Shown here: one piece after another, positions 7,373-49,261 of the stretch
Layout: every line of letters begins with the position of its first letter
Position numbering within the stretch: position 1 is the first letter of the stretch
Assembly (NCBI GenBank): GCA_043821485.1
Contig: JBDRCU010000037.1
Span: 28,746 to 92,745, forward strand
Source of the DNA: Parcubacteria group bacterium
GTDB taxonomy: Bacteria > Patescibacteriota > Minisyncoccia > 2-02-FULL-40-12 > IGHO2-01-FULL-4-A
DNA length: 64,000 nt
Direction: 5' to 3'
Translations under genes and position numbers: made by a program
The notes under the pieces: generated by a model
Databases searched by the model: none
Told to the model about the DNA's origin: nothing
What the model saw: the letters and a program-made list of their open reading frames with translations, nothing else

Positions 7373-9319
7373 ATGACAGGAAATAAATCGAAAGCACGCG
7401 TCCAGCTGGACGCAGAACCGGTCGAACCTAAAGAAGGAATCAAAAAAAATACATCCAGACGCAGACATATTCGCAGATCATCGAGTCCGTCTTCGCATGT
7501 AAAAGATACAATAAGGACTGCTCGCAGTGAATCCCAGACATCTCCGCGCAGAGCAACTCGCAAAGGACCTCGCCTGCGAGACAATCGCCGGCCTCCAAGC
7601 GGACTTAAACAATTAGTCCGGCTCAAACGTAAAACCAAAGATACTGCAGAAGGCTATGACGATTCACTAAAATATACTCCTCTGGGAGGTCTCGGTGAAA
7701 TCGGACGAAATATGGCTGTACTAGAATACAAGGATGAGATACTTCTCATTGATGCTGGTTTTGGTTTTCCAGAAAATGACCAACCCGGAATTGATTACAA
7801 TATTCCGAACATCAATTATCTAAAGGGTAAAGAGAAAAAAATTCAGGCACTTCTGATAACTCATGGTCACTATGATCACATTGGCGCACTCCCTTACATA
7901 ATGGACAAAATCGGCAATCCACCGATCTACTCATCACGGCTTACGGGAGCAATCGTAAAAAAACGCCATCTGGAATTCCCCCATCTTCCAGAGCTTGATA
8001 TAACAGAGGTTGACCACAAAGACACTATTAAGGTTGGCCAGTACTTTGAAATAGAATTTGTGCATGTTAATCACAATATGCCTGAAGACTTAGCTATGTA
8101 CATCAAAACTCCTGCAGGAACCATATTCCATACAAGTGATTTTAAATTTGATCCAACACCTCTTAATGAAGCTCCTACAGATATCGAATATCTTAAAGAA
8201 GTTGGAAAACGCGGAATCACATTACTTTTGTCTGATTCAACTGGAGCAGAAAAGCCTGGCGAATCAATATCAGAATCAGAAATTAGCAAAAACTTGGAAG
8301 AAATATACAAAACAGCCAAAGGCAGAATCATAGCGGCAACATTCGCATCCCTGATAAACCGTGTCCAACAAATGATTACATTGTCCGAAAAATATGGAAG
8401 AAAAGTAATCATAGATGGCTATAGTATGAAAAGTAATATAGAAATAATGAAAGAGCTTGGAGAAATCAGAATGAAAAAAGATACCCAAATCACTCCTGAC
8501 CAAATAGACAATTATCCCGACAATCAGATAATGGTAATTGGAACAGGTGCGCAAGGAGAAGAACGCGCTGTTATGATGCGCATTGCTTCTGGCGAACATA
8601 GACACGTAAGACTCCGCGCCGAAGATACTGTAATATTTTCATCTTCCGTAATTCCGGGGAATGAACGAACTGTACAGCGCTTACAGGATTTACTCTATAG
8701 AATGGATGTAAATGTATTCCATTATCAAATGATGGACATCCATGCAGGTGGTCATGCACTTCAGGATGATTTGAGAAAAATGATACAAATAATGAAGCCT
8801 AAATTCTTCATGCCTATTCACGGATATTATTCAATGATGGTTGTTCATGGCAGATTGGCACAGGAAGAAGGTATAAGCAAAGATAATGTACTCATTCCTG
8901 ACAATGGAAATATTATCCATATAACACCTAATGAATGGTGGTACGACAAGAAATCCGCAGAAATAGAGAACATCATGGTAGATGGTCTGGGCGTTGGAGA
9001 TGTCGGCAATGTTGTCATTCGAGACAGACAAGTACTTGCAGAAGAAGGCATGTTTGTAATCATTTCTCTAATCAATGGCCGAACAGGTGCAGTACAAGGA
9101 AGCCCTGATATCATTTCACGCGGATTTGTCTATCTTAAAGATAATAAGGAACTTCTGACAGAAGTACGCAACAAGGTTAAAGAGATTGTAAAGAAAACCA
9201 CCACAAGACCAATCAATACAACTGATCTCAAAAATAGTATCCGTGAAGAAATTGGTTTATTCCTTTTCAAAAAGACAGAACGACGTCCGATGATATTGCC
9301 TGTCGTGATAGAAGTGTAA
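7373..9319 (+). CDS. rnj: Ribonuclease J (metallo-beta-lactamase / beta-CASP) with an N-terminal Arg/Ser-rich extension of about 100 aa
   Basis: The core starts LKYTPLGGLGEIGRNMAVLEY and carries the zinc-binding motif HGHYDHIG. Confidence 0.88.
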   Translation: MTGNKSKARVQLDAEPVEPKEGIKKNTSRRRHIRRSSSPSSHVKDTIRTARSESQTSPRRATRKGPRLRDNRRPPSGLKQLVRLKRKTKDTAEGYDDSLKYTPLGGLGEIGRNMAVLEYKDEILLIDAGFGFPENDQPGIDYNIPNINYLKGKEKKIQALLITHGHYDHIGALPYIMDKIGNPPIYSSRLTGAIVKKRHLEFPHLPELDITEVDHKDTIKVGQYFEIEFVHVNHNMPEDLAMYIKTPAGTIFHTSDFKFDPTPLNEAPTDIEYLKEVGKRGITLLLSDSTGAEKPGESISESEISKNLEEIYKTAKGRIIAATFASLINRVQQMITLSEKYGRKVIIDGYSMKSNIEIMKELGEIRMKKDTQITPDQIDNYPDNQIMVIGTGAQGEERAVMMRIASGEHRHVRLRAEDTVIFSSSVIPGNERTVQRLQDLLYRMDVNVFHYQMMDIHAGGHALQDDLRKMIQIMKPKFFMPIHGYYSMMVVHGRLAQEEGISKDNVLIPDNGNIIHITPNEWWYDKKSAEIENIMVDGLGVGDVGNVVIRDRQVLAEEGMFVIISLINGRTGAVQGSPDIISRGFVYLKDNKELLTEVRNKVKEIVKKTTTRPINTTDLKNSIREEIGLFLFKKTERRPMILPVVIEV

Positions 9320-9409
9320 AACGTAAGAAAATCTTGATATTTTCGTCATATTCTATACAATATATCCCCCTCTAAATAGCTAATGCTACAGGGAGGGAGA
9401 TATTTTATT

Positions 9410-11170
9410 ATGGGAAGATTTAAAAGACTAATCCCCTATATTTGGCCGCATATCAAGCGGTATCCATGGTCATTCTATCTGACCTTTATTGGCTATGGCA
9501 TAGGATGGGGCTTAACGGGACTCCTTGTCCCATTCATATATAAAGATATCGTTGATGTCATCTCTGGGGCGACTGACCCATCTTTGGTAGCAGACCCATT
9601 ACTCGGTCTGATTTTCAAGCTTCTTGTCATAATTGTTATCTACAACATACTCTTCCGCATATCAGATTGGAGTATTATACGTTTTCAAAGCAAGATCCAA
9701 CGCGATCTTATCTCATATCTATTTGAAGAACTAGGAAAACATTCCTATAAGTTTTTTGTTAATGAATTTGCAGGAAGTCTGGTGACAAAAATAAAACGAT
9801 TCATAAGAGCGCTGGACCGCATGCATGATCGTATAACTTTTGATTTCTGGAATGCGATTATACAGCTTGCTGGGATGTTTGTTATTTTGTTTTATGTCAA
9901 TACAATAATTGGAATAATATTTCTATCCTGGTCTATAATTTTTATTGTATTAACAATCCTAAGCGTTAAATATCGAATCAAATACGATCTTGCCGAAGCT
10001 AAGGAAGATTCAAAGATAACAGGACTTCTGGCTGACACGATAACAAACATTCTTAACATCAAAATGTTTGCTAAGAGTGACTACGAGAATACCAGATTCA
10101 GAGAAAGCGCAGAAATACAACACAAAGCCAGATATGCAGCCTGGAACTTCAATATGAAAATATATGCAGTGCAAGCTGTATTCATCGGAGCTCTTGAAAT
10201 TAGCGGGATGTTTGTAGCGATTAAACTCTGGCTGGCAGGATCTATATCCCTAGGTACGATTGTCCTCATTCAAAGCTACTTTGGAATAATCTTCAACCGT
10301 ACATGGAACCTTGGAAGAGCAATGTCCGAATTCAGCAAAGCCCTATCCGATGCTGATGAAATGATTGATATACTGGAAGAACCTATAGGGATTAAGGATC
10401 CTCTCAAACCTAAAAAAGTGAAAATCAAAGAAGGCAATATCTCTCTTGATGACATGACCTTCTGCTATGGCGAGAAAGGTGAAGATGTCTTCTCTAAGTT
10501 CAATTTGGATATTCCATCTGGTCAACACATAGGTATTATTGGCCATTCAGGATCGGGTAAAACGACCATAACTAAACTTCTTTTAAGATTCGCAGACATA
10601 CAAAAAGGCAGTATTAAGATTGACGGACAGGATATACGTCATATCACACAGGACGATCTTAGATCTGAGATTGCATACGTACCACAGGATCCGATACTAT
10701 TCCATCGAAGTCTTGAAGAAAATATTCGTTATGGAAATCTCAAGGCAACCGAAGAAGAAGTTATTGAAGTTGCTAAGAAAGCCCATGCACATGAATTCAT
10801 CTCTGCCCTACCGAAAGGATACAACACTTTGGTTGGCGAGCGCGGAATTAAATTATCTGGAGGAGAACGCCAGCGTGTTGCAATTGCACGAGCCATGTTA
10901 AAAAACACCCCAATCTTAATCCTAGACGAAGCAACAAGCTCGCTTGATGCAGTTAGTGAAAAATTGATTCAGGAAGCATTCAAAGAATTAATGAAAAACC
11001 GCACAACTATAGTCATTGCTCACAGACTCTCAACTATCCAGAAATTGGACAGGATTATCGTACTTGAAGACGGAATTATAGAAGAAGAAGGCACGCATAA
11101 CGAACTTATTAAAAAAGAAGGTATCTACCACAATTATTGGACTCACCAAGCAGGAGGGTTCATAGAATAA
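9410..11170 (+). CDS. ABC transporter ATP-binding/permease fusion (exporter, MsbA-like)
   Basis: A 6-TM domain is followed by Walker A GHSGSGKTT, the signature LSGGERQRVAIARA and a Walker B-like ILILDEATSSLD motif. The start is chosen at the ATG at 9410, which follows a GGGAGGGAG Shine-Dalgarno site. Confidence 0.9.
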   Translation: MGRFKRLIPYIWPHIKRYPWSFYLTFIGYGIGWGLTGLLVPFIYKDIVDVISGATDPSLVADPLLGLIFKLLVIIVIYNILFRISDWSIIRFQSKIQRDLISYLFEELGKHSYKFFVNEFAGSLVTKIKRFIRALDRMHDRITFDFWNAIIQLAGMFVILFYVNTIIGIIFLSWSIIFIVLTILSVKYRIKYDLAEAKEDSKITGLLADTITNILNIKMFAKSDYENTRFRESAEIQHKARYAAWNFNMKIYAVQAVFIGALEISGMFVAIKLWLAGSISLGTIVLIQSYFGIIFNRTWNLGRAMSEFSKALSDADEMIDILEEPIGIKDPLKPKKVKIKEGNISLDDMTFCYGEKGEDVFSKFNLDIPSGQHIGIIGHSGSGKTTITKLLLRFADIQKGSIKIDGQDIRHITQDDLRSEIAYVPQDPILFHRSLEENIRYGNLKATEEEVIEVAKKAHAHEFISALPKGYNTLVGERGIKLSGGERQRVAIARAMLKNTPILILDEATSSLDAVSEKLIQEAFKELMKNRTTIVIAHRLSTIQKLDRIIVLEDGIIEEEGTHNELIKKEGIYHNYWTHQAGGFIE

Positions 11171-11174
11171 GCTT

Positions 11175-11219
11175 GCAAAATAAAACGCAAAACGGGCTGG
11201 TCCCCATGGACCGGCCCGT
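11175..11219 (-). terminator. Rho-independent terminator for the minus-strand gene at 11273..11671
   Basis: A GC-rich imperfect hairpin, ACGGGCTGGTCC-CCAT-GGACCGGCCCGT, is followed on the minus strand by a T-rich tract (TTTTGCGTTTTATTTTG). Confidence 0.6.
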
Positions 11220-11272
11220 CGCAAGAACATTTGAAAGTATATTATTACCTCCTACTGAATCCAGTACTACTT

Positions 11273-11671
11273 CTATGGAGGCAGGATATCCAATAAAACA
11301 TCCTGAGCCAAGGGGCCTGATACTCTGACAGCATGACCAGTCCTGATCGGCTGACCTTCGGGAGATTTCACCATATCGTATGGCGAGATTTTCATCTGGA
11401 CTCGACAGGTCTCGTCTCCCAGAAGGATCTCCACGCAAATAGCGCCCTTCGATTCCCTGACTTCAAGGGTAAGGTTGCGCTCCCCGGACCCAAAGCCTGC
11501 ACTATGAAGCTCTAGGCCCTGACCCACGATTCGCACAGGAACCACGACTCTGGAGCACCCCTTAATGATACCTGTGACGGACTCTTTTCTCTCTCCTCCT
11601 CCCCCGTCGAAAGTACGTACTTCCGGCTCCTTGGGCCCTTTTGTGATGACGCTCTTCCTTGCTTCAGTCAT
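11273..11671 (-). CDS. Hypothetical protein (132 aa) in GC-rich island A, with a possible small beta-barrel/OB-like fold
   Basis: The ATG is at 11671 (MTEARKSV...), 6 nt downstream of a GGAGG Shine-Dalgarno site, and the gene has its own terminator. GC content is far above background. The longer in-frame upstream extension would overlap trpS and lacks a Shine-Dalgarno site. Confidence 0.55.
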   Translation of the reverse strand: MTEARKSVITKGPKEPEVRTFDGGGGERKESVTGIIKGCSRVVVPVRIVGQGLELHSAGFGSGERNLTLEVRESKGAICVEILLGDETCRVQMKISPYDMVKSPEGQPIRTGHAVRVSGPLAQDVLLDILPP

Positions 11672-11758
11672 GGCTTTCCCTCCACATCTCTGATATACAG
11701 AGCATACTACATAGTTACAATTCTCGGATATATCGTCAATATCTGCTATAATCAAAAT

Positions 11759-12736
11759 ATGAAAATATTCTCTGGTATACGGCCTTCGGGCAAGCTCCAT
11801 CTAGGAAACTATCTTGGAGCAGTAAAAAATTGGATCGAACTGCAAGACAAACCTGATACAAAACAGGTTATTTATGCTGTTGTTGATTATCATGGTATTA
11901 CCACTCCATTTGCTCCGGCGACCTATCATGAACAAATCACAGACGCAATCCTTGATTATCTTGCTGCTGGCGTGGATCCAACTAAATCCTTAATTATCAG
12001 ACAATCCAAGGTACCCGCTCATACAGAACTTGCATGGATATTTAATACAATTACGCCCATAAGCTGGCTTGAACGTTTGCCAACCTACAAAGAGAAGCTG
12101 GAACAAACTCATGGCAAATACAATCATCTTGGCTTACTCTCCTATCCAGTTCTCATGGCTTCCGACATATTAATATACATGTCAGATGCAGTTCCCGTTG
12201 GAGACGATCAAAAAGCCCACATCGATATTACGAATGAAATCGGCAAGAAGTTCAATTCAATGTTTGGCGAAACATTTCCTGCAGTAAAGATGCTTCGTAC
12301 AAAAGGAGAACGCATTAAATCTCTCCAAGATGCAGATAAAAAAATGTCTAAAACCGGAGATGAAAGTATAGCCTTAACAGATGACCCAGATACAGTTGCA
12401 AAAAAGATCAAAAAAGCAGTCACTGATTCCGGAAGTAAGATTACATTTGACGAAAAAAAGAAGCCAGCAATATCAAATTTGCTGACTATCTATCACCTGC
12501 TCACGGATAAACCAATATCATCCATCGAATCCGAATACGAAGGCAAAACATATGCTGATTTTAAAAATGATCTTGCAGAAGCAACAATAGAATTTATAAA
12601 ACCATTTCAGGAGAAACGTAAAGAATTCGAAAACAATATGGATGAAGTTCGTAAAATTATGACAGACTCAGAGGAAAAGGCTAATGAAATAGCAAACAAA
12701 AATCTAGCTCACATCAAAGAAAAGATAGGATTGTAG
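11759..12736 (+). CDS. trpS: Tryptophan--tRNA ligase
   Basis: The N-terminus is MKIFSGIRPSGKLHLGNYLGA (HIGH-type region), and there is a KMSKT (KMSKS) motif. Confidence 0.92.
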   Translation: MKIFSGIRPSGKLHLGNYLGAVKNWIELQDKPDTKQVIYAVVDYHGITTPFAPATYHEQITDAILDYLAAGVDPTKSLIIRQSKVPAHTELAWIFNTITPISWLERLPTYKEKLEQTHGKYNHLGLLSYPVLMASDILIYMSDAVPVGDDQKAHIDITNEIGKKFNSMFGETFPAVKMLRTKGERIKSLQDADKKMSKTGDESIALTDDPDTVAKKIKKAVTDSGSKITFDEKKKPAISNLLTIYHLLTDKPISSIESEYEGKTYADFKNDLAEATIEFIKPFQEKRKEFENNMDEVRKIMTDSEEKANEIANKNLAHIKEKIGL

Positions 12737-12887
12737 ACATAATACCAGACAACATATACATATTCTGTCAAGGTTTACTGTTTATACAAAGTATGGTTAA
12801 ATAAAGATAGAATCATATATTCATAAAAATGAGACAGAAAACTGTCTTATTTGTAGTACCTTAACAGTGAGTTTGTTTCAGTTTGTT

Positions 12888-12933
12888 GGATGGGATTCAT
12901 AGTTCGCATGTGTGTGGATTATGAATCCCATCC
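12888..12933. repeat. Perfect 13-bp inverted repeat (GGATGGGATTCAT ... ATGAATCCCATCC) with a 20-nt spacer
   Basis: Read directly from the sequence. The repeat lies about 70 nt upstream of the lipoprotein gene in island B. Confidence 0.6.
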
Positions 12934-13001
12934 GACGCAATTCTGTAGCGGATGAAGAAGGGACTCGGCCATTGCGGCTAGAGCCCAGAAGGAGACAGAC
13001 G

Positions 13002-13496
13002 ATGAAGTACAAGCTTCTCGTATCCGTGTTCGCGCTCCTGGCGGCTTCGCTACTGATGGCTGGGTGCGGTGGCAGTGGACCGACTAACTCCCTGGTCCAG
13101 CAGACCGTGCAGTCGGTCAGGATCGTAATGCCTGTTGACAGGGCGACGAGCCAAGAATCTCCGCCCGGACTGAGGAGCAACGGCTACACAAGCTTCTTGG
13201 TGGAAACAAAGGGTCATACCAACAGCCCGACTCTTCAGGCTTTCTTCGAGGAATGGTCTGCTATCGAAGGGGAGCCTCTATCTCTGACAGCGCACTTCAA
13301 AGACCTCGAGATACAGAACAACACACCTTCCCCCTCCGCGAACTGGAAGGTTATACCCCCGCAAGATTGGCCCAAAGCGACGCTCACCCGGCTATACATC
13401 TCGGTTCAACCTAAAGATCCCCGGACTGGCGATGGAGTAGGCGGAGATTACATCTGGGTCTATATCAACGGGCTCCCCACTGATCCGGCTGGCTAA
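13002..13496 (+). CDS. Putative lipoprotein (164 aa) in GC-rich island B
   Basis: The product starts MKYKLLVSVFALLAASLLMAGC, a signal peptide with an LMAGC lipobox. The RBS context is AAGGAGACAGACGATG. GC content is high. Confidence 0.65.
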   Translation: MKYKLLVSVFALLAASLLMAGCGGSGPTNSLVQQTVQSVRIVMPVDRATSQESPPGLRSNGYTSFLVETKGHTNSPTLQAFFEEWSAIEGEPLSLTAHFKDLEIQNNTPSPSANWKVIPPQDWPKATLTRLYISVQPKDPRTGDGVGGDYIWVYINGLPTDPAG

Positions 13497-13521
13497 CAAA
13501 ACCGAAACAAACTCCGAACCG

Positions 13522-13568
13522 ACGGACCGTCACCATCCTATCCTATATGGTGGCAACGGTCCGTTTTT
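13522..13568 (+). terminator. Rho-independent terminator after the island-B lipoprotein
   Basis: The hairpin ACGGACCGTCACCAT...ATGGTG..ACGGTCCGT is followed by TTTTT. Confidence 0.65.
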
Positions 13569-13633
13569 AAATACAAGAATCCATCAACAAGCTAAGCATA
13601 GAACTATCTGCTAAAAGATATATAATAAAGATA

Positions 13634-14983
13634 ATGAAATATTCACGTATATTTATCTTTTGTATAATCGTAATTCTACTTTTTACATTTCTATTTTTTG
13701 AAAAAGCACCTACAACTAATGCAGTAGGGACTTGTTATTGGACAAATGAATGTGGCAATCAGCAAAGGTTTGTTTACTGTCTTGAGCCAACTACTGTTTG
13801 CTCCTGTGAAAGGGGCGAAACCATACAATGCCAACCTCCAGACCCCAGCATCGTAGAACGTATAGATTGCGAATGTATAGATCCAAGCACCCCAACCCCC
13901 ACCCCCACTCCAACTCCTACACCAAGTGGAACCCCTACTTCAACACCTACTTCAACTCCAACTTCCACACCAACCCCAACACCTCCACCCACCCCAACCC
14001 TCAACGTCTATCTCTGGGCTACTCCTAATACAGGGGCTCCTCCTTTAGAGGTTCTCCTTGAAGCAAATATTTCTGGTACTGCAACAGGGAAGATCAATTA
14101 CTGGATGTGGTGGGATTGTACAAGTACAACTACAAGTCCTTCAACAGCTGCAGGCATATGCGGTGAATTACCTGATAACCCTTCTTCCGGTAGCTGTGCA
14201 AGTAATGAGCATGGAATCAAATGCAAGGAGATATACGATAATCCTCTACAGGTTGTACATGAATATATTGGTTTGGGCAGCTATACTCCCAAGGTAATAG
14301 TTTCTCGAAGTACTGCACCAAATGACGAAGATAGAGCTTCTGTTGATGTAATGATACCTCCTACTGCAACAATAGATACTCTTGTTCCCCCTAACTACTG
14401 CATATCAGGTCCTGCAACTCAGGTTAACTGGATATATTATGATCAAGGCGGATCGCCTCAGAAATATTACAGGGTACAGGTAGATAACAATTCAGATTTC
14501 AGCAGTCCGGAAAAAGATTCAGGAAAGGTGCAATCCGGTTCAAATTCATACTTTGCAAGCGGTCTTGGCTTCGGGGAAACATATTACGTGCGCGTAAGAG
14601 TCTGGAATCAAGACAATGTTAAATCTGCTTGGAGCGGATCTGAATCATTTTCAACTCCTGCTTATGCAGCGCCTAATATTGAATTCAGCTGGATACCAGA
14701 AGATCCTGCAGTAGAAACTGTAGTGGAATTTAGTGATGATTCTACTGTATATGGAGGGTCGCCAATATGGAGTTGGGATTTTAACTGTACTGTAGAGCCT
14801 CTTGAATGCGATCTTTCTGAATCTTCAGATCAAAATCCAAACAATGTATTCCATATACAAGATGATTATTCTATAAACCTTGAAATATCAGATGGATTGC
14901 ATACATGCAATGAAACTCAATTGCTTTCAGTGCCTGCAGAGAATCCAATACCCTATTGGATAGAGGTGGGGCCGTGGGATTAA
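13634..14983 (+). CDS. Secreted/cell-surface protein with a Cys-rich N-domain, a Pro/Thr-rich linker and a C-terminal beta-rich (FN3/PKD-like) region
   Basis: The product has a signal peptide, MKYSRIFIFCIIVILLFTFLFF. A (TP)n/(TPTS)n linker lies at about 13,890-13,990. The protein has many Cys residues. Confidence 0.65.
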   Translation: MKYSRIFIFCIIVILLFTFLFFEKAPTTNAVGTCYWTNECGNQQRFVYCLEPTTVCSCERGETIQCQPPDPSIVERIDCECIDPSTPTPTPTPTPTPSGTPTSTPTSTPTSTPTPTPPPTPTLNVYLWATPNTGAPPLEVLLEANISGTATGKINYWMWWDCTSTTTSPSTAAGICGELPDNPSSGSCASNEHGIKCKEIYDNPLQVVHEYIGLGSYTPKVIVSRSTAPNDEDRASVDVMIPPTATIDTLVPPNYCISGPATQVNWIYYDQGGSPQKYYRVQVDNNSDFSSPEKDSGKVQSGSNSYFASGLGFGETYYVRVRVWNQDNVKSAWSGSESFSTPAYAAPNIEFSWIPEDPAVETVVEFSDDSTVYGGSPIWSWDFNCTVEPLECDLSESSDQNPNNVFHIQDDYSINLEISDGLHTCNETQLLSVPAENPIPYWIEVGPWD

Positions 14984-16233
14984 TGGGTCAATAGATCAAT
15001 CAACTCCTGTTTCTTTTGTTCAAAAAGTTCTTTTGTTTTTGCTTCAACAATACAAATTACAGCAGGATGAGTGCTTGATGGCCTAATAAGCATTCTCCAG
15101 TCCGGATAAGTTATATCCACGCCGTCTAATTCATTTATGCCTCCTTCCGGATATTTTTCTTTAAATTCTGCCAAAATCTCATCCATGGATCTAGGTAATT
15201 CAGAAAGTCCATATTCAATCTCACCGGAATTAAACCAACTGTCTATTGAACTAGTCAATGTCTTAGCATCTGTATCTGTAATCTCTAATAGATATAGAAT
15301 AAGAACCATCGTCAATGCTACACTCTCAACAAATCCCATTGCTTTAAACATGTAGTGCCCTGAAAACTCTGCTCCAAATTCAGCGTCATTATCCCGCATA
15401 GTTTGTTTAATAAATGCATGTCCGGTCTTTGAAAGTATCGGAGTGATATTGTGATGCTTTACGTAATCAAGCACTGAATGTGAAAATTTTACATCATGGA
15501 CCATAGCTTGTCCTTTAAAATAGCTTCGGGCAATAATAGCGCCTAATATATCCCCTCTTACCTTAATGTTATCCTTATCACCTACCTGAATGCGATCACC
15601 ATCAGGGTCGCAAGTAAATATTATATCCGGATTGTTGTAATCCATTGTCACGCCAAGCTCAAGCAATATAGCTCCCAGCTCATCAACTATCATTGAATTT
15701 GCCTCAAGCTTCACTCTTCGCTTAAACTGCATCGGTTTAATCCCTGATGCTTTAATGACAGCCTCCGTGTGGTCTGCCTTAATATCCTTACTGATTACCT
15801 TGCCTTTAGGCATGAGTGGTTCTACTCTGCGAGTACGTAACATCTGTTTTAAAATATCAAAATTATCATTGTCTCCCCCTATCACCACAGCATCCTTACC
15901 AACAGGCTTAAACCCGTTATATTCATCTCCCAAATGAGATGCTGTTATCATCACTCCCCCGTCAGCACCTTCATTGATTACGCCAAAGTAGCACAAGGGC
16001 GTACTCGTTACTCCAATATTTACAACGTCACAACCTGCGTGTGTAATTCCTTCAATCATCTTACCTGCAAGAGTTGCAGATGTATCACGCATATCGTGAG
16101 CAATTACAATCTTGCGAGCCTGTAAAAATTCAACCAAAACAATGCCAAATTGATATGCAAATTCATCATCAAATTCCTGGCCATAAAGACCTCGAATATC
16201 ATAAGCTCTGAATATATCTGGATTAAAAATCAT
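14980..16233 (-). CDS. Phosphoglucomutase/phosphomannomutase family protein
   Basis: The N-terminus is MIFNPDIFRAYDIRGLYGQEF. An active-site region TASHLGDEYNGFK (TASHNP-like) is present. The product is 417 aa. Confidence 0.85.
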   Translation of the reverse strand: MIFNPDIFRAYDIRGLYGQEFDDEFAYQFGIVLVEFLQARKIVIAHDMRDTSATLAGKMIEGITHAGCDVVNIGVTSTPLCYFGVINEGADGGVMITASHLGDEYNGFKPVGKDAVVIGGDNDNFDILKQMLRTRRVEPLMPKGKVISKDIKADHTEAVIKASGIKPMQFKRRVKLEANSMIVDELGAILLELGVTMDYNNPDIIFTCDPDGDRIQVGDKDNIKVRGDILGAIIARSYFKGQAMVHDVKFSHSVLDYVKHHNITPILSKTGHAFIKQTMRDNDAEFGAEFSGHYMFKAMGFVESVALTMVLILYLLEITDTDAKTLTSSIDSWFNSGEIEYGLSELPRSMDEILAEFKEKYPEGGINELDGVDITYPDWRMLIRPSSTHPAVICIVEAKTKELFEQKKQELIDLLTH

Positions 16234-16319: not shown

Positions 16320-17669
16320 ATGCAATTATCTGATATTAAACACGTCCATATGATAGGCATTAAAGGCACAGGCATGTCTGCTTTGGCTTTAATGCTCACT
16401 AAATTTGGTATTCGAGTCTCCGGATCTGATACGAAAGACTCGTTTCTGCTTCTGGATAAGAAGAATTTTGTTAAAAACAGGATTAAAATATTTCCTGAAT
16501 TCAAAGCAAAGAATATCTCCAAAGAAGTAGATCTTGCGATAGTATCCACTTCGCATAATAAAGGGGGTAATCCTGAAGTTAAAGAAATTAAACGCCGAGG
16601 AATTAAGTTAATAACCTATCCTCAGATGCTTAGCATGATTACACGCGAACTCCCATCAATTGCAATTATTGGAAGCCATGGCAAGACTACTACTACGAAT
16701 CTGCTCGGACATATAGCTTTGAATAATGGCATTCGTTCTGCAGTACTTTCTGGACCAACAAGCCAACAAGTCTTAAATGAAGCAAAAAAAGATCCTGAAT
16801 CATTTATCTTCGAAGCTGATGAGTATGAGAACAAACTTCGCCACTACAATCCGCAAATGGTAATACTCACCAGTGTTGATTACGATCATCCTGATTTTTT
16901 CAAAACTCCGACGCAATACAAAAATGTTTTTAAAAATTTCATAAAACGTATTCCCAAAACAGGTCTGCTAATCTACTGCGCTGACGACAAAAATGTTCGC
17001 GAGGTTGCCAAACTAGCAAAATGCAAAACATTAGCATACGGAATATCCAGCCATGCCAAAATCAAAACCAGAATCATCAAACCTCATCTATTTGAGGTAC
17101 TACACGGCAGAAACAAAGCCCGTATCAAAACGCCTCTCATTGGCACACACAATAGCCTGAATGCCACGGCAGTGCTCCTCGCCTCTCGCGAACTTGGCAT
17201 AACCAACAAACAATTTCAAAAATCCCTTTCCACATTCAAAGGCTCTCCTAGAAGATTAGAGAAAATATCTACAAAACCGCTTATCTATGACGACTACGGA
17301 CATCATCCGAATGAAATCCGTGCAGCTATAAGGGCTCTTCGCGACGAGTATCCAAAGCATGAAATCTGGACAGTGTTTCAACCTCACACCTATACACGAA
17401 CTAAAAAATTCCTTAAAGAATTTGGCAAATCGTTTGAAGATTCAGATCACACCATAGTATTAGATATATGGGGTTCGGCAAGAGAAGATTCTGGTATGGT
17501 ACATTCAACGGATCTAATGTTTGAAATTGGCAAAAATGGAGATACCGTATACCATCTCCCTTCAATGAAAAAGGCTGCCCGATTCCTAAAAAACATTATG
17601 AAAAAGGATACCCTAATCCTAACAATCGGCGCAGGCGATATCTGGAAAATCCATGAATTGCTAGTTTAG
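16320..17669 (+). CDS. murC: UDP-N-acetylmuramate--L-alanine ligase (Mur ligase family, MurC-like)
   Basis: The N-terminal motif is HMIGIKGTGMSALALML..SGSD. An ATP-binding motif GSHGKTTTT is present. Confidence 0.82.
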   Translation: MQLSDIKHVHMIGIKGTGMSALALMLTKFGIRVSGSDTKDSFLLLDKKNFVKNRIKIFPEFKAKNISKEVDLAIVSTSHNKGGNPEVKEIKRRGIKLITYPQMLSMITRELPSIAIIGSHGKTTTTNLLGHIALNNGIRSAVLSGPTSQQVLNEAKKDPESFIFEADEYENKLRHYNPQMVILTSVDYDHPDFFKTPTQYKNVFKNFIKRIPKTGLLIYCADDKNVREVAKLAKCKTLAYGISSHAKIKTRIIKPHLFEVLHGRNKARIKTPLIGTHNSLNATAVLLASRELGITNKQFQKSLSTFKGSPRRLEKISTKPLIYDDYGHHPNEIRAAIRALRDEYPKHEIWTVFQPHTYTRTKKFLKEFGKSFEDSDHTIVLDIWGSAREDSGMVHSTDLMFEIGKNGDTVYHLPSMKKAARFLKNIMKKDTLILTIGAGDIWKIHELLV

Positions 17670-23057: not shown

Positions 23058-23220
23058 ATTTAAATTATACCTTAAAAACCTGATAAAAAGGAGCTAATAT
23101 TAGACCATGCTTGTGCTGTCTTGACAATGTATATTAGAAGTGATATATATAGATTATCGTGAACAACGTATTAATCTCCTTCTAACTCCTGGCTCGTCTG
23201 AGCTGGGGAAAGGAACAGAG

Positions 23221-23346
23221 ATGCATCGTAACAAGGATCGGGGCCTACGAGCCCCCAAGAATAAGAGGACATTGAACCACAGTTTCAACCACATCGGCAC
23301 CGCCAACATCGCCACCGACGCCAGCGCCGGCCACCTGTCCGGCTGA
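23221..23346 (+). CDS. Candidate micro-ORF (41 aa) in GC-rich island D
   Basis: ATG preceded by AAAGGAACAGAG. The peptide is MHRNKDRGLRAPKNKRTLNHSFNHIGTANIATDASAGHLSG. A second 11-codon ORF, MHPRPQIRGPP, starts at about 23,388 with an AGAAGGAGACGACG-ATG context. Coding status is uncertain. Confidence 0.3.
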   Translation: MHRNKDRGLRAPKNKRTLNHSFNHIGTANIATDASAGHLSG

Positions 23347-23432
23347 GACAGCAGCCGCGCACGGCAGAAGGAGACGACGATGCACCCGCGACCGCAGATC
23401 AGGGGTCCCCCGTAGGATCCCACGTTCTCCCC

Positions 23433-23467
23433 GGGGCCGCCCCAGAAAGGCGGCCCTTTCACTTTTA
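23433..23467 (+). terminator. Rho-independent terminator (GGGGCCGCC-CCAGAAA-GGCGGCCC then TTTCACTTTT)
   Basis: The hairpin and T tract were read directly. The element is oriented for the plus strand at the end of island D. Confidence 0.55.
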
Positions 23468-29488: not shown

Positions 29489-29568
29489 TCAAAACGAAAA
29501 CGCCGCTCGACAGTGCGAGTTTTGTTTTCGCACTACCTTACGACGTGTCGTGGTACATGTTTTTCCTC

Positions 29569-30108
29569 CTATCCCTGGAAGGTTTCAGTTGCCGCGCCAT
29601 TGGCATTGGGCCAGCGGCGCTTGAAAAGTATCGGAACGAGGATCCTGACGGGGACCTTATGTAAGGCACCCTCCAGCCACAGGATTACCTTGAGTCCTGG
29701 GAAGAAGTGATTCAGACGCTCACAGCAAGTCTGACACAAGTTGGCGACATGGATATCTCCAGTCTGCTTCTTTCTGTGAACTGTCACCAACGTTACCGGT
29801 TTCCCGTTCCTCTTAGCAGCACAGTGCATGAGCCCCACTTCGGCACAGCTCGAGGACTGACCTATGGGAGTATCGAGTTGGAGACCATCGAACTCATTGC
29901 CCTGGCTGTCGACGCTAAGCGCGTACAGCTGGTGAAAGCCATGCTGGTAATATCCCTCCAGTGCAGCCTTGGCCCGTTCGACAAGTCTCTCATCTTCCCT
30001 GGTCATCGGCTCTTCAAACTTCAGAATCATCTGGACGTGTGCACTGTGGCATATCGTTTCCAGCTTTTGCCACTCTTCTTGGTCTGGTTTGTCGGGTTTC
30101 TCGCCCAT
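29569..30108 (-). CDS. Cytidine/deoxycytidylate deaminase-fold protein (tetrameric CDA / blasticidin-S deaminase-like) in GC-rich island E
   Basis: Zinc ligand motifs SCAEV (CxE) and CQTCC (CxxC) are present. Their spacing, and the flanking pattern AKAAL..Y..GFHQLYAL...G......TP, match the homotetrameric cytidine deaminase pattern. The ATG at 30108 follows an AAGGGAG Shine-Dalgarno site. Confidence 0.7.
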   Translation of the reverse strand: MGEKPDKPDQEEWQKLETICHSAHVQMILKFEEPMTREDERLVERAKAALEGYYQHGFHQLYALSVDSQGNEFDGLQLDTPIGQSSSCAEVGLMHCAAKRNGKPVTLVTVHRKKQTGDIHVANLCQTCCERLNHFFPGLKVILWLEGALHKVPVRILVPILFKRRWPNANGAATETFQG

Positions 30109-30188
30109 CGGGTTCTCCCTTCTTCTAAATCCTGAGTTCCACGACAATAACAGACTATGATTTAAATGTCAAATCTACTTAATTCTAT

Positions 30189-40976: not shown

Positions 40977-41675
40977 ATGGAAGAATTTAAGCTCGACGAA
41001 CTTCAGCAGAGTATTGGCCTGCAATTTAACGATAAAGACCTATTACTTAAGGCCCTGACTCATCGTTCTTATTTAAATGAGAACACTTCGTGGCATCTGG
41101 ACCATAATGAACGTTTGGAATTTTTGGGTGATGCGGTACTGGAACTGGTTGTCACGGAATATCTTTATGGCAATTATCCTAATCCCGAAGGAGAACTCAC
41201 TAATTGGAGGGCTGCTTTAGTGAATTCAGTCATGCTTGCAAATATTGCGAAGAAGTTTAATCTTAATGATTACCTGCTACTGTCCAAAGGGGAAGCCAAA
41301 GACGAAGGGCGTGCGCGCCAGTATATTCTTGCAAATGCAGTTGAAGCATTAATTGGAGCCATACATTTGGATAGCGGATATGAGGCAGTGCGCAAATTCA
41401 TAACCACCTTCATTCTGGATGAACTTGAATTGATTTTAAAAGACAAGAAATATAGGGATCACAAAAGTCTTTTTCAGGAAGAATCGCAAGAACGCGAAGG
41501 AGTAACCCCAAACTATGAGGTGCTTGAAGAGTGGGGACCAGATCATGATAAAAATTTCAAAGTTGGAGCTTATCTTGAACGAACCCTCATAGCAGAGGGC
41601 GAGGGACATTCAAAACAAGAAGCCCAGCAGGAAGCTGCTAGAAACGCTCTAATTGTTAAAGGTTGGGATGAATAA
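40977..41675 (+). CDS. rnc: Ribonuclease III
   Basis: The RNase III signature ERLEFLGDAVLELVV is present. A C-terminal dsRBD is present. Confidence 0.92.
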   Translation: MEEFKLDELQQSIGLQFNDKDLLLKALTHRSYLNENTSWHLDHNERLEFLGDAVLELVVTEYLYGNYPNPEGELTNWRAALVNSVMLANIAKKFNLNDYLLLSKGEAKDEGRARQYILANAVEALIGAIHLDSGYEAVRKFITTFILDELELILKDKKYRDHKSLFQEESQEREGVTPNYEVLEEWGPDHDKNFKVGAYLERTLIAEGEGHSKQEAQQEAARNALIVKGWDE

Positions 41676-45654: not shown

Positions 45655-45724
45655 ATATACAACTCTGCGAGGTCCGTAAGGAATTTCATAGAACGTACAT
45701 TCCGAAAACGAGAGGAGAAAGGTC

Positions 45725-46387
45725 ATGCGTTACGCGGGCCTATTCCTGTTGGTGGTCGCCATCATGGCGACCCTCACAATCAACTCCGAACCCGCCTTCG
45801 CCGGAGACCTGTTCGACAGGATCCTTAGCGAGGGCTTGGCTGGCACCGATCGAGACCACGTCGTCACGACTGCCCGCCAGACGATCCGCGAGGACAGCGA
45901 CATCCGTGACCCCGGAACAACTGGAAGCATCTACGAAGGGGTCGACATCACAAACAAGGTACTTGGAAATCCTTACGGTGGCGGGGGAACCAAGGGAACG
46001 CTAACCCGCCTAGGTGGAGCTGGACTGTTCTACTTCCTGGACAGTACGGGTCGCATTCGACATCCGAGTCATACACGTCAATCGGCGGATGTCGTCAAGC
46101 AGATCGAAGCCAAACCCGATACCGTGACCCGACCGACACCGGACCCAAGCATGGAGTGGTCTCTCAACAACGTGACGACCGACAAAACCATGGTCGTCTA
46201 CTACCAGAACGAGATGCTCTTCGTGCTCAACGGCGGAGAGTCGAACTTCCATGCGATTCCTCTGAGCTGGAACTCCACCCGCTTCAGGGCGGAGATCCTG
46301 GAACAGGATCCATCGACTGGCGCCCTTGTTCGCAGTGCTGCGACCAGAACGGCCACCGGAAGCTACGGCTTCAACTTCTCCGACTAG
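45725..46387 (+). CDS. Hypothetical secreted protein (220 aa) in GC-rich island F
   Basis: A signal peptide MRYAGLFLLVVAIMATLTINSEPAFAG is present. The RBS context is GAGGAGAAAGGTC. GC content is high. Confidence 0.6.
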   Translation: MRYAGLFLLVVAIMATLTINSEPAFAGDLFDRILSEGLAGTDRDHVVTTARQTIREDSDIRDPGTTGSIYEGVDITNKVLGNPYGGGGTKGTLTRLGGAGLFYFLDSTGRIRHPSHTRQSADVVKQIEAKPDTVTRPTPDPSMEWSLNNVTTDKTMVVYYQNEMLFVLNGGESNFHAIPLSWNSTRFRAEILEQDPSTGALVRSAATRTATGSYGFNFSD

Positions 46388-46438
46388 CCGGCCATGAGAC
46401 CGGCAACAAGTACCGACATCAGGGCCGGACCTCCAACA

Positions 46439-46462
46439 GGGGGCACCGGCCCCCTTTTTTTT
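46439..46462 (+). terminator. Strong rho-independent terminator (GGGGGC-ACCG-GCCCCC then T8)
   Basis: Read directly. It sits immediately before the rRNA promoter region. Confidence 0.7.
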
Positions 46463-46694
46463 ATAAAACCCTTGACTTACCTAGGTCATTCTAATACACT
46501 GTATGGGTACTATGAATTAACACAAAACATACATCTTCATAGCATTTATGAAGGCTCGGGATTGTCCCTCAATGGGATGGTCCCGAGTCTTTAATGACAG
46601 AACATTAACAACTTTACAGCCAACGATACGTATATTCGTATCGTTAACTAGATCAATGAAAGATAGTTTGAGTAAATCTCAACTATTCTTATAA

Positions 46695-46734
<40 letters not shown>

Positions 46735-48113
46735 GATAAGGCATGCAAGTCGAACGGGCAATCTTCGGATTGTCAGTGGCGAACGAGTTAGTAACGCCTT
46801 GGTACCTACCCTATACTCAAGAATAACTCCGAGAAATCGGAGCTAATACTTGATAGTCTCGAAAGAGTAAAGATTTATCGGTATAGGAGGGGCCTAGGTC
46901 CTATCAGCTTGTTGGTGAGGTAACGGCTCACCAAGGCTATGACGGGTAGGGGATGTGAGAGCATGATCCCCAACGAGGGAACTGAGAACGGTCCTTACAC
47001 CTACGGGTGGCCGCAGTCGAGAATATTGGACAATGCGCGAAAGCGTGATCCAGCGACGCCGCGTGCAGGAAGAAGGCCTTCGGGTTGTAAACTGCTTTTA
47101 TGTGGGAAGAATTTTGACGGTACCACAAGAATAAGGGGCTGCTAACTTCGTGCCAGCAGCAGCGGTAATACGAAGGCCCCAAGCGTTATCCGGAATTATT
47201 GGGCGTAAAGGGCAGGTAGCCGGTTGGTATAGTCTGATGTTAAATCTCATGGCTCAACTATGAGACCGCATCAGAAACGTATCAGCTAGAGCAAGTCAGA
47301 GGCATACGGAACGTGCGGTGTAGGGGTGAAATCCGTTGATATCGCACGGAACACCAAAAGCGAAGGCAGTATGCTGGGGCTTTGCTGACGGTCAACTGCG
47401 AAAGCGTGGGGATAGAAAAGGATTAGATACCCTTGTATTCCACGCCCTAAACGATCCAGACTAGCTATCGGGAGCATCGACCCTCCCGGTGGCGAAGCTA
47501 ACGCGTTAAGTCTGGCGCCTGGGAAGTACGATCGCAAGATTAAAACTCAAAGGAATAGGCGGGGATTCGCACAAGCGGTGGATCGCGTGGTTTAATTCGA
47601 TACAAAGCGAAGAACCTCACCAAGGTTAGACATCATAGTGAAAGCCTTCTGAAAAGTTGGCCCCTTTTATAGCACTATGACAGGTGGTGCACGGCTGTCG
47701 TCAGCTCGTCGAGTGATCGGTTCTCTTAAGTGAGGAAACGAGCGCAACCCCTGTCGTCTGTTACAAGTGTCAGACGATACTGCCTGGGATAACCAGGAGG
47801 AAGGAGGGGATGACGTCAAGTCAGCGTGTCCTTTGATACCTTGGGCTACACACGCGATACAATGGGTGTTAACAATGGGTTGCCAAACCGCGAGGTGGAG
47901 CTAATCCCATCAAATGCGCCCTCAGTTCGGATAGGAGGCTGAAACTTGCCTCCTTGAAGTTGGAATCGCTAGTAATCGCAGATCAGAATGCTGCGGTGAA
48001 TACGTTCTCGAATCTTGCACTCACTGCCCGTCACATCAGGGAAGCCGGAAATACCCAAAGCACCATAAATTCTAATGGTACTACGGTAGGTTCGGTAACA
48101 AGGATGAAGTCGT

Positions 48114-49017
48114 AGAGATTAAGAAATAAAATTTGCGACCTGTCAAGAGTAATCTGGCAGAAAAACCCGACTAATATCGGTGAAACCTAAATCTTAAAAT
48201 GTTATAATTAAGATATGGTAATACCGAGGAAAGCTAGGAGAATCACATATTCAACTGAAATAAGAGAGCTAAAAAAGAGACTAAAACTAGATGAGTCACA
48301 AAAGGCTATAGTGATAGGCAGTATATTGGGCGATGCAACATTAGAGCTCAATTGGTCAAAAACCAACTGCCGAATGAGAATTGATCATTCTATAAAACAA
48401 GAGGATTACGTACGACTAAAGTATACAATCCTCAAGGACTGGGTACTTACTGAACCTAAATACTACAAGCCTCATAGGTCCATATGGTTCCGAACAATAA
48501 GTCATCCCAACCTTACTGAACTATGGAAAATATTCTACAAGAACAAGAAAAAAATTATACCAGAAAATATAGCTGAACTAATCCAAAACCCCCTTACTGT
48601 TGCAACATGGTTTATGGATGATGGTAATGTACGAAGACGAAATTCACGTATAATTTCCTACGACCTCAATACTCAATCGTTCACATACGCAGAAAATGAA
48701 AAACTTCTGAACGCCTTGAAAACGGTCTATGGAATATCTTGCAGTCTACATAAAAATCATAACAGACATAGAATATATATCGGTACCAATGAAAAAAATA
48801 AATTCCAAAAGATAATACGTAAATTATCAACACCATCTCTTAAATACAAACTTCAGTGAATATGTGATTCTCTTGGCCCCGTAGAGACTTCTCGTACTCT
48901 GGCCCCATAGCAGAACGAGGGATAGCTGTACGTAGACAGCTATAATACGTCGGCCCCAGTTATTAAAAACTGGGTGAAGATATAGTCCATGCTCGTGGAA
49001 ACACGGGAATAAACATG
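48114..49017 (+). other. Intervening sequence (probable group I intron) in the 16S rRNA at an E. coli ~1506-equivalent site
   Basis: Exon 1 ends ...GAAGTCGT and exon 2 starts AACAAGGCACGG, which restores the universal GAAGTCGTAACAAGG. A U precedes the 5' splice site and the intron ends in G. The boundaries are approximate, within a few nt. Confidence 0.6.
48215..48859 (+). CDS. Intron-encoded double-motif LAGLIDADG homing endonuclease
   Basis: Motif 1 is IVIGSILGDATLE. Motif 2 is TVATWFMDDGNV. The ORF lies wholly inside the 16S insertion. Confidence 0.85.
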   Translation: MVIPRKARRITYSTEIRELKKRLKLDESQKAIVIGSILGDATLELNWSKTNCRMRIDHSIKQEDYVRLKYTILKDWVLTEPKYYKPHRSIWFRTISHPNLTELWKIFYKNKKKIIPENIAELIQNPLTVATWFMDDGNVRRRNSRIISYDLNTQSFTYAENEKLLNALKTVYGISCSLHKNHNRHRIYIGTNEKNKFQKIIRKLSTPSLKYKLQ

Positions 49018-49261
49018 AACAAGGCACGGCTAGGAGAACCTGGTCGTGGATCACCTCCTTTCTATACAAAAACTCCTGCTTTATGCAGGTGCTGTATAGA
49101 AACATTAGGTGTCGATATAGGTTGTGCGAGGTTTGTTCGTCGATAGACAAGCACCTCGTACAAACTAAGGCTGGCTGATACAGCCCAATCTATCAGCGTT
49201 TGATGCTACCGAAAAGCACACTATCTAGTTAATGATACAAATAGACGTATAAACTCTAAAC

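Follow-up and report, generated by a model that had tools for sequence, protein, structure and literature searches.

The 64-kb window analyzed here, by which we mean the whole stretch of DNA under study, is part of a 126-kb contig from a metagenome-assembled genome of the Parcubacteria group, and the host is a Yanofskybacteria-like member of the Parcubacteria. Within this window, which has an overall GC content of 39.7%, we focused on a short GC-rich segment, island B (12869-13572), that lies between trpS and the phosphomutase gene pmm and carries a single gene for a predicted lipoprotein. A long inverted repeat stands upstream of this gene, a Shine-Dalgarno (SD) sequence precedes its start codon, and a terminator follows it; additionally, two 16-nt segments, one on each side of the gene, are complementary to each other. 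A preliminary description of this DNA had proposed that the inverted repeat could be an operator or a recombination site that marks the border of a foreign island.

The lipoprotein open reading frame (ORF; 13002-13496, plus strand, deposited as ABH833_02290) starts with MKYKLLVSVFALLAASLLMAGC and encodes 164 amino acids, and its GC content by codon position (0.56/0.47/0.65) is that of a coding sequence. Positions 13002-13067 encode a signal peptide and a lipobox (MKYK-LLVSVFALLAASLL-MAG-C22) that fit the PROSITE-style pattern, with a Met at position -3, which is less common there than Leu. Weak NCBIfam matches to lipoprotein signal regions were also obtained (E = 0.014-0.018). With its basic N-terminus, hydrophobic core and lipobox Cys within approximately 35 residues, the product has the sequence features of a bacterial lipoprotein precursor, a substrate of Lgt and LspA, and is predicted to be one. 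The preliminary description had named this ORF and its lipobox, together with an SD-led initiation context and a strong terminator, and all of these held. The SD sequence AAGGAG (12989-12994, plus strand) is located 7 nt before the ATG, and the intrinsic terminator (13521-13569, plus strand) consists of a GC-rich interrupted stem at 13521-13565 followed by TTTTT (-24 kcal/mol, z = -4.6); a simple terminator scan overlooked it owing to an internal loop in the stem. A near-identical initiation context had also been reported from elsewhere in the window, and we located it in another GC-rich island, island C: the context of island B (12986-13004), CAGAAGGAGAC[A]GACGATG, recurs at 23365-23382 with 18 identical bases, barring an indel of 1-2 nt. 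The copy in island C precedes an ORF of just 11 codons, and the likeness stops at the 11-nt SD context, with no homology further out. This common context may reflect a shared donor or a decayed gene.

The protein itself is an orphan. Both a word-indexed search of 5.8e9 clustered proteins and an exhaustive phmmer search of 1.84e9 representatives returned only the lipoprotein itself, no family was matched in Pfam, NCBIfam, PHROGs, PADLOC or PDB sequences, and tblastn found no match in phage and plasmid collections. An AlphaFold2 model built from the single sequence was unusable (predicted local distance difference test score of 37). The suspicion that the lipoprotein is not a conserved native gene of the lineage was therefore borne out by the homology searches.

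The surroundings of the gene tell the same story. Island B has a GC content of 54.0%, compared with 26.5% and 27.9% in its intergenic flanks, and the GC content at third codon positions (GC3) of the lipoprotein ORF is 0.65, compared with 0.32 for both trpS and pmm and 0.28 for the gene that follows the island. An SD sequence is present in all six ORFs of the five GC-rich islands of the window versus 6 of the 53 native ORFs (Fisher p = 2e-5). To the left, native DNA ends at the terminator of trpS (12832-12854). For synteny, we used loci with genes for relatives of TrpRS, 70 from genomes and 80 from metagenomes, the best of which share approximately 70% identity over the full length. In the genome loci, the genes usually follow one another as RNase J, TrpRS, PMM (minus strand) and MurC, and the gap between TrpRS and PMM, in relatives with both genes, is mostly 0-250 bp. 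In this genome, the trpS-pmm gap measures 2.2 kb and contains island B and a gene for a PKD/Ig-like secreted protein (13634-14983). No strain-level relative that would allow an empty-site comparison was found among the genome and metagenome contigs, in which the closest TrpRS is the one with approximately 70% full-length identity. Because of the contrast in GC and GC3, the SD sequence, the synteny gap and the orphan protein, island B is, as far as sequence can tell, a foreign or lineage-specific single-gene unit rather than a conserved native gene. The island interpretation of the preliminary description thus stands in its core, that is, as a GC-rich, non-native and self-contained gene, and not in its assignment of an operator or recombination site.

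A direct repeat of 22-24 bp surrounds the insert, with its left copy at 12800-12823 and its right copy at the start of the next gene (13624-13645); the statistics are marginal (p = 0.02 and 0.025), and since none of the four other islands shows such a repeat, it is at best a weak insertion signature confined to island B. The start region of the PKD/Ig-like gene is similar to 12800-12823. The encoded protein has a Thr/Pro-rich linker and a native composition (GC3 0.28), and its gene, like island B, is missing from the trpS-pmm slot in relatives. In Patescibacteria, individually transferred genes and genomic islands are reported to make up as much as 13% of the genome length (PMC12455944). Island B matches this category by composition and synteny, but it has no nameable donor, since its protein is without any homologue, and the hairpin and panhandle anatomy set out below is not described in that paper. 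Orphan genes that are horizontally acquired or confined to one lineage and carry a structured leader are known, and island B belongs with them.

The palindrome that had been claimed upstream of the ORF is real. The sequence GGATGGGATTCAT at 12888-12900 has its exact reverse complement at 12921-12933, so the arms lie where they had been placed; however, they are longer than the 13 bp described, with perfect arms of 14 bp (12888-12901 and 12920-12933) and a spacer of 18 nt instead of 20 nt. By 100 dinucleotide shuffles, 0.04 inverted repeats with perfect arms of 13 bp or more and a loop of at most 40 nt are expected per window, and no other long perfect inverted repeat occurs in the window besides terminator-type hairpins with A-runs and T-runs or AT-rich hairpins. 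Pairing continues beyond the arms, with seven further pairs in the spacer and four on the outer side, which gives 25 contiguous pairs in a predicted plus-strand RNA hairpin at 12884-12937, where 12884-12908 pairs with 12913-12937 around a UGUG loop (12909-12912). By our calculation, eleven extra consecutive Watson-Crick or G·U pairs have a probability of approximately 2e-5 under a random-sequence null. The five imperfect pairs are without exception G·U on the plus strand and A·C on the minus strand, and the hairpin energy is -38.6 kcal/mol on the plus strand (z = -9.8) versus -24.3 kcal/mol on the minus strand, a difference of 14 kcal/mol. In every transcript context tried, the pairing probability of the hairpin was 0.95-0.97. 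That the imperfect pairs of this extension are exclusively of the G·T type on the plus strand points to a hairpin acting at the transcript level rather than to a duplex-DNA site. Folding of the region yielded a stable predicted plus-strand RNA hairpin and gave no support to the DNA site proposed before.

The preliminary description was correct that this palindrome is no classical terminator. The hairpin is followed by CAATTCTGTA on the plus strand and by AACTGAAACA on the minus strand, and we rejected an intrinsic terminator at 12884-12937 because a U tract is absent on both sides. No further copy of the arms occurs in the window, and the two-arm pattern (24 bases with a gap of 10-30 nt) has no match in IMG/VR or in the metagenome contigs of JGI. 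In Rfam, the hairpin region matched nothing at the gathering threshold; at E <= 10, only generic miRNA-precursor hairpins appeared, far below the threshold. The long hairpins of relatives are mainly bidirectional terminators with an A-run, a GC core and a T-run, or perfect AT-rich DNA palindromes that typically lie between divergent or adjacent genes, and the hairpin of island B falls outside both classes. A substrate of RNase III is expected to offer at least approximately 20 bp of continuous double-stranded RNA (dsRNA) in a host that encodes the enzyme; the 25-bp stem and the rnc gene of this host agree with this expectation and mark the hairpin as a candidate substrate. Further downstream, immediately 5′ of the SD sequence, a second stem-loop of the leader (12960-12986, plus strand; GGGACUCGGCC...GGCUAGAGCCC) is weak and not significant (z = -1.4).

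Among the relatives, perfect AT-rich intergenic palindromes of 38-56 bp were seen at loci L011 (4856-4895), L101 (2958-2997) and L111 (923-962), and further ones at L149 (4292-4347 and 4893-4932) and L088 (2246-2291). Some of them run CAT...ATG and look like a pair of divergent leaderless gene starts that, together with their -10 boxes, have merged in one palindrome.

A second complementarity connects the two ends of the unit. The segment GAGTTTGTTTCAGTTT (12869-12884, plus strand), just 5′ of the hairpin, is complementary at 15 of its 16 positions to AAACCGAAACAAACTC (13499-13514, plus strand), which starts 2 nt past the stop codon and forms an AT-rich patch amid GC-rich DNA. None of 300 dinucleotide shuffles of the island reached 15/16, and none of 500 did so when the leader was tested against the 3′ untranslated region (UTR) (p < 0.002 for island B). 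In the folded 711-nt transcript, the long-range helix is present in both the minimum free energy structure and the centroid, and its pairing probability is 0.92 with any of three assumed 5′ ends. The whole transcript folds with z = -5.3, whereas its coding part does no better than shuffles (z = +1.56); the structure signal therefore comes from three UTR elements. This result also led us to reject island B as a structured non-coding RNA. An anti-SD or translational switch was rejected as well: folding of the isolated leader pairs the 5′ segment with the SD sequence, but this pairing drops to 0 in longer transcripts, and the accessibility of the SD sequence does not depend on the helix.

Overall, we propose that island B is an orphan secreted lipoprotein unit whose mRNA carries a 25-bp hairpin in the 5′ leader and is closed as a panhandle, and that these elements steer the fate of the mRNA rather than events at the DNA, a function that we infer from the predicted folds; in our estimation, this proposal could equally be right or wrong. 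Transcription of the plus strand across the palindrome would fold the 25-bp hairpin in the 5′ leader of the lipoprotein gene, and pairing of the leader segment 12869-12884 with 13499-13514 would close the message as a panhandle. The putative mRNA would then read, in order, closing helix, 5′ hairpin, leader, SD sequence, ORF, closing helix and terminator. The stable 5′ structure might shield the message from host RNase J and from decay that depends on the 5′ end. Alternatively, the dsRNA of two helical turns might be cut by host RNase III, which would free the lipoprotein message from trpS read-through transcripts. Such read-through would explain why no promoter is seen.

Several points weigh against this proposal. 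A scan of both strands of 12600-13700 gave no sigma-70-like promoter, and the placement of the hairpin in the lipoprotein mRNA leader is thus a prediction. The sole mismatch in the 16-nt helix is an A·C pair on the plus strand. The probability that the SD sequence is unpaired barely differs with and without the closing helix (0.32-0.37), which gives no support to a translational switch. Under a null in which a DNA palindrome decays by transitions, finding 5/5 G·T pairs on one strand has a p of only approximately 0.03. In the same shuffle test, islands A, C and E and the two related loci L071 and L072 lacked convincing pairing between the 5′ and 3′ UTRs; besides island B, only island D reached p = 0.012, before correction for seven tests. 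We therefore discarded the idea that such pairing is a trait of all islands, as it is seen in island B and marginally in island D, and a duplexfold statistic across the islands was uninformative.

A different view takes the palindrome for a recombination site or for one end of a mobile element, with the 16-nt repeats as terminal inverted repeats (TIRs) and the hairpin as a subterminal single-stranded DNA structure, of the IS200/IS605, palindrome-associated transposable element (PATE), miniature inverted-repeat transposable element (MITE) or attC-like type, that delivered the cassette. Such an origin would account for the position of the hairpin precisely at the GC jump, for a 15/16 inverted repeat that encloses both the hairpin and the ORF as TIRs would, for a second hairpin at the right end and for the weak direct repeat of 22-24 bp that brackets the whole insert (p ~0.02); moreover, hairpins of single-stranded DNA tolerate G·T pairs as well. 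However, neither the palindrome arms nor the 16-nt repeat has another exact copy in the window, the 152 related loci contain no match to the 16-nt repeat, and the two-arm pattern was missing from the viral and metagenome collections searched (IMG/VR and JGI). The 93 matches of the 16-mer in IMG/VR are nearly all single-copy, approximate the number that we estimate for chance and include 0 inverted pairs. The bases outside the 16-nt repeats (12861-12868, TTAACAGT, versus 13515-13522, CGAACCGA) form no target-site duplication, and neither transposase nor integrase genes, nor tnpA or tnpB, are found near the island. Unlike the ends of IS200/IS605 elements, the hairpins on the left and on the right show no relation to each other; the one on the right is a canonical terminator, and its U tract lies outside the would-be right repeat. 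The order of the core sites, 5′-GTTGGAT...ATCCGAC-3′, is opposite to that of attC (RYYYAAC...GTTRRRY). Candidate element types were rejected one by one on these grounds: an integron attC site for its reversed core order, a stem without bulges and the lack of an array and an integrase; an IS200/IS605 or PATE element for its unrelated end hairpins, the lack of another copy and the lack of tnpA or tnpB nearby; and a TIR transposon or MITE, despite its 15/16 inverted repeat, for the lack of a target-site duplication and of further copies in the window or related loci. We consider a mobile-element origin of the palindrome distinctly unlikely. An operator, the other role suggested by the preliminary description, here taken as bound by a dimeric or tetrameric regulator of the lipoprotein gene, appears to us very unlikely. 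Its arms are perfect over 14 bp, their centers are 32 bp apart, or approximately three helical turns, which would place them on the same face of the DNA, and the site lies 5′ of the ORF. Nevertheless, no regulator gene lies in or beside island B, no promoter-like site overlaps the palindrome, the 64-kb window holds no second copy, half-sites so long and so widely spaced are atypical for operators, and a duplex-DNA site would not account for pairing exclusively of the G·T type in the spacer and outer flanks. The preliminary description had itself named a unique and unconserved palindrome as the finding that would speak against an operator or recombination site, and the palindrome is both; with regulator, integrase, transposase, overlapping promoter and target-site duplication all lacking, neither of the two proposed roles was upheld.

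The hairpin might instead belong to the upstream trpS gene, as a terminator without a U tract, a read-through barrier or a 3′-end stabilizer that insulates the foreign gene. It is specific to the plus strand, which is also the strand of trpS, the interval from trpS to the hairpin shows no promoter, and hairpins of 18-19 bp lie directly 3′ of trpS in two relatives (L003, 5798-5839; L080, 1844-1883). On the other hand, trpS has a hairpin with a T-rich tail of its own at 12832-12854, and the distance from the trpS stop codon to the hairpin is 148 nt versus 2-5 nt in those relatives. The L003 hairpin is a classical bidirectional terminator with an A-run, a GC core and a T-run, and the L080 hairpin is a perfect DNA palindrome followed by TTT, whereas the hairpin of island B has no U tract. 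Furthermore, the adjoining 16-nt segment pairs with the 3′ UTR of the lipoprotein gene and thereby links the region to the downstream message, so that an assignment to trpS seems unlikely. Finally, the palindrome may have no function, with the inverted repeats being by-products of an illegitimate insertion or a recent inverted duplication that is decaying by transitions. It is indeed unique and unconserved, all its mismatches are transitions, as neutral decay predicts, and the lipoprotein gene itself is an orphan of unknown value. However, all five transitions preserve pairing on the plus strand (p ~0.03), an independent second complementarity falls exactly on the two UTRs, and the 3′ arm of that complementarity, AT-rich amid GC-rich DNA, matches the 5′ arm. 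We would give the absence of any function the same low probability as a role for the hairpin in trpS expression.

The neighboring housekeeping genes were identified by NCBIfam profile matches. Upstream of island B lie genes for an RNase J family nuclease (7373-9319; TIGR00649, above cut-off) and an ABC exporter (9383-11170), followed by trpS (11759-12736; TIGR00233, 322 bits, above cut-off); downstream are pmm (14980-16233, minus strand) and murC (16320-17669). The RNase III gene rnc is located at 40977-41675 (TIGR02191, 246 bits versus a cut-off of 166). The terminator of trpS (12832-12854, plus strand) is of the native AT-rich type, AGACAG-AAAA-CTGTCT followed by TATTTGT; its hairpin is symmetric, and the simple terminator scan flagged it on the minus strand.

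Translation signals of the host differ from those of the islands. Only 6 of the 53 native ORFs have a 4-mer SD sequence or better, and in 14 of 53, a TATAAT-like -10 box lies at a distance of 3-13 nt from the ATG, which suggests transcripts without a leader for these genes. Many native genes combine a TATAAT box 6-8 nt 5′ of the ATG with the absence of an SD sequence, for example, those starting at 1619, 11759, 23057 (minus strand), 31512 (minus strand) and 48215, and the pattern suggests a wide use of leaderless mRNAs in this organism. We had suspected that the host lacks an anti-SD sequence, as the Rfam match to its 16S rRNA stopped before CCUCC; this was ruled out because an insertion displaces the true 3′ end, GGATCACCTCCTT (49048-49060), which carries the anti-SD sequence CCTCC. 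The insertion, approximately 900 nt long, lies near the 3′ end of the 16S rRNA gene (46689-49061), after approximately position 48117, and encodes an ORF of 214 amino acids (48215-48859) that has no NCBIfam match and is possibly a homing endonuclease. A second long plus-strand hairpin with G·U pairs (46549-46593; 20 bp, of which 5 are G·U) is situated between the terminator of island E and the 16S gene and may be an rRNA leader element.

Island B is one of five GC-rich single-gene islands in the window; the other four have GC contents of 53-60%, and each carries a strong SD sequence and a GC-rich terminator. Island A (11171-11745) holds a 132-amino-acid ORF on the minus strand, and island C (23150-23462) holds ORFs of 41 and 11 amino acids. 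Island D (29489-30150) carries a cytidine-deaminase-like ORF on the minus strand with the promoter TTGACA-17-TATTGT. Island E (45655-46465), just 5′ of the 16S gene, encodes a secreted orphan of 220 amino acids and has the promoter TTGACT-17-TATAAT. Apart from the 11-nt SD context that islands B and C have in common, the five islands share no DNA. Homology searches covered three island proteins; those of islands B and E are absolute orphans, and the island D protein has just two homologues, with approximately 50% identity, at L071 (187-792) and L072 (275-796). Both homologues are likewise encoded in islands, with 58-65% GC between flanks of approximately 35-40% GC. L071 and L072 have a conserved promoter and a leader of approximately 110 nt in common, and the hairpin in this leader shows one compensatory change, ACCCAA/TTGGGT in L071 versus ACCCCCA/TGGGGGT in L072.

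In the relatives, SD sequences precede 14 of 26 ORFs with a GC3 at least 0.15 above the locus median versus 38 of 471 typical ORFs (p = 1e-8, with crude gene calls), and this suggests that a GC-richer gene pool feeds these genomes. At L114 (1796-3313), an ORF with a GC3 of 0.71 that resembles serine recombinases, as judged by its N-terminal sequence alone, belongs to a GC-rich island on a metagenome contig of the Yanofskybacteria-like type, and this hints at GC-rich integrative elements in the lineage. Island B might, in turn, be one of a recurrent class in Yanofskybacteria-like Parcubacteria, namely, small, GC-rich, SD-led and self-terminated units, mostly orphans, in AT-rich and largely SD-less genomes; we advance this generalization tentatively and hold it to be unlikely. 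If GC-richness persists across such divergence, one would have to assume either a hidden donor pool rich in GC, namely a virus or mobile element of these bacteria, or selection that maintains the GC-richness of these genes, and, were the class real, the panhandle mRNA of island B could be an adaptation for expression in a mostly SD-less and often leaderless host. GC-rich, SD-led orphan units in genomes of the episymbiont type could thus indicate a gene pool of unsampled donors. Island B alone matters little. It does provide a clean, small test case for a foreign SD-dependent gene in a mostly SD-less bacterium, and it presents a predicted bacterial mRNA that is closed by pairing of its 5′ and 3′ UTRs outside a toxin-antitoxin context.

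Other known systems invite comparison. Phage morons are self-contained units of promoter, gene and terminator that have a deviant composition and sit between conserved genes, and several of them encode lipoproteins, for example, bor of phage lambda. Island B resembles a moron in that it consists of one gene and a terminator for it, deviates strongly in GC content from its neighbors, has a predicted lipoprotein product and is inserted between genes that are adjacent in relatives. Unlike morons, it is surrounded by housekeeping genes (RNase J, trpS, pmm and murC) and not by a prophage, and it has neither a sigma-70-like promoter within 12600-13700 nor a phage homologue.

The mRNAs of the hok/sok type fold back so that their 5′ and 3′ ends pair. 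A similar fold is predicted for island B, in which the 3′ UTR pairs with the 5′ end of the mRNA and so closes the message. In contrast to hok/sok, the product is a protein of 164 amino acids with lipoprotein signals and not a small membrane toxin (under approximately 60 amino acids), no antisense promoter (12600-13700, minus strand) or overlapping reading frame is present, and the SD sequence is not sequestered by the closing helix. A type I toxin-antitoxin system was therefore excluded by the size of the product and the missing promoter-like site on the minus strand, with only the predicted fold-back in common.

Leaders with stable hairpins offer another comparison. Stem-loops at the 5′ terminus stabilize mRNAs in the leaders of E. 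coli ompA and of B. subtilis aprE and ermC, and hairpins processed by RNase III occur in T7 early mRNAs and in the rnc and pnp leaders. Like these, island B has a very stable hairpin in a predicted 5′ leader. Its stem of 25 uninterrupted base pairs, or approximately two turns of dsRNA, is longer and more perfect than that of typical stabilizers, and genes for both RNase J and RNase III are encoded in the same window.

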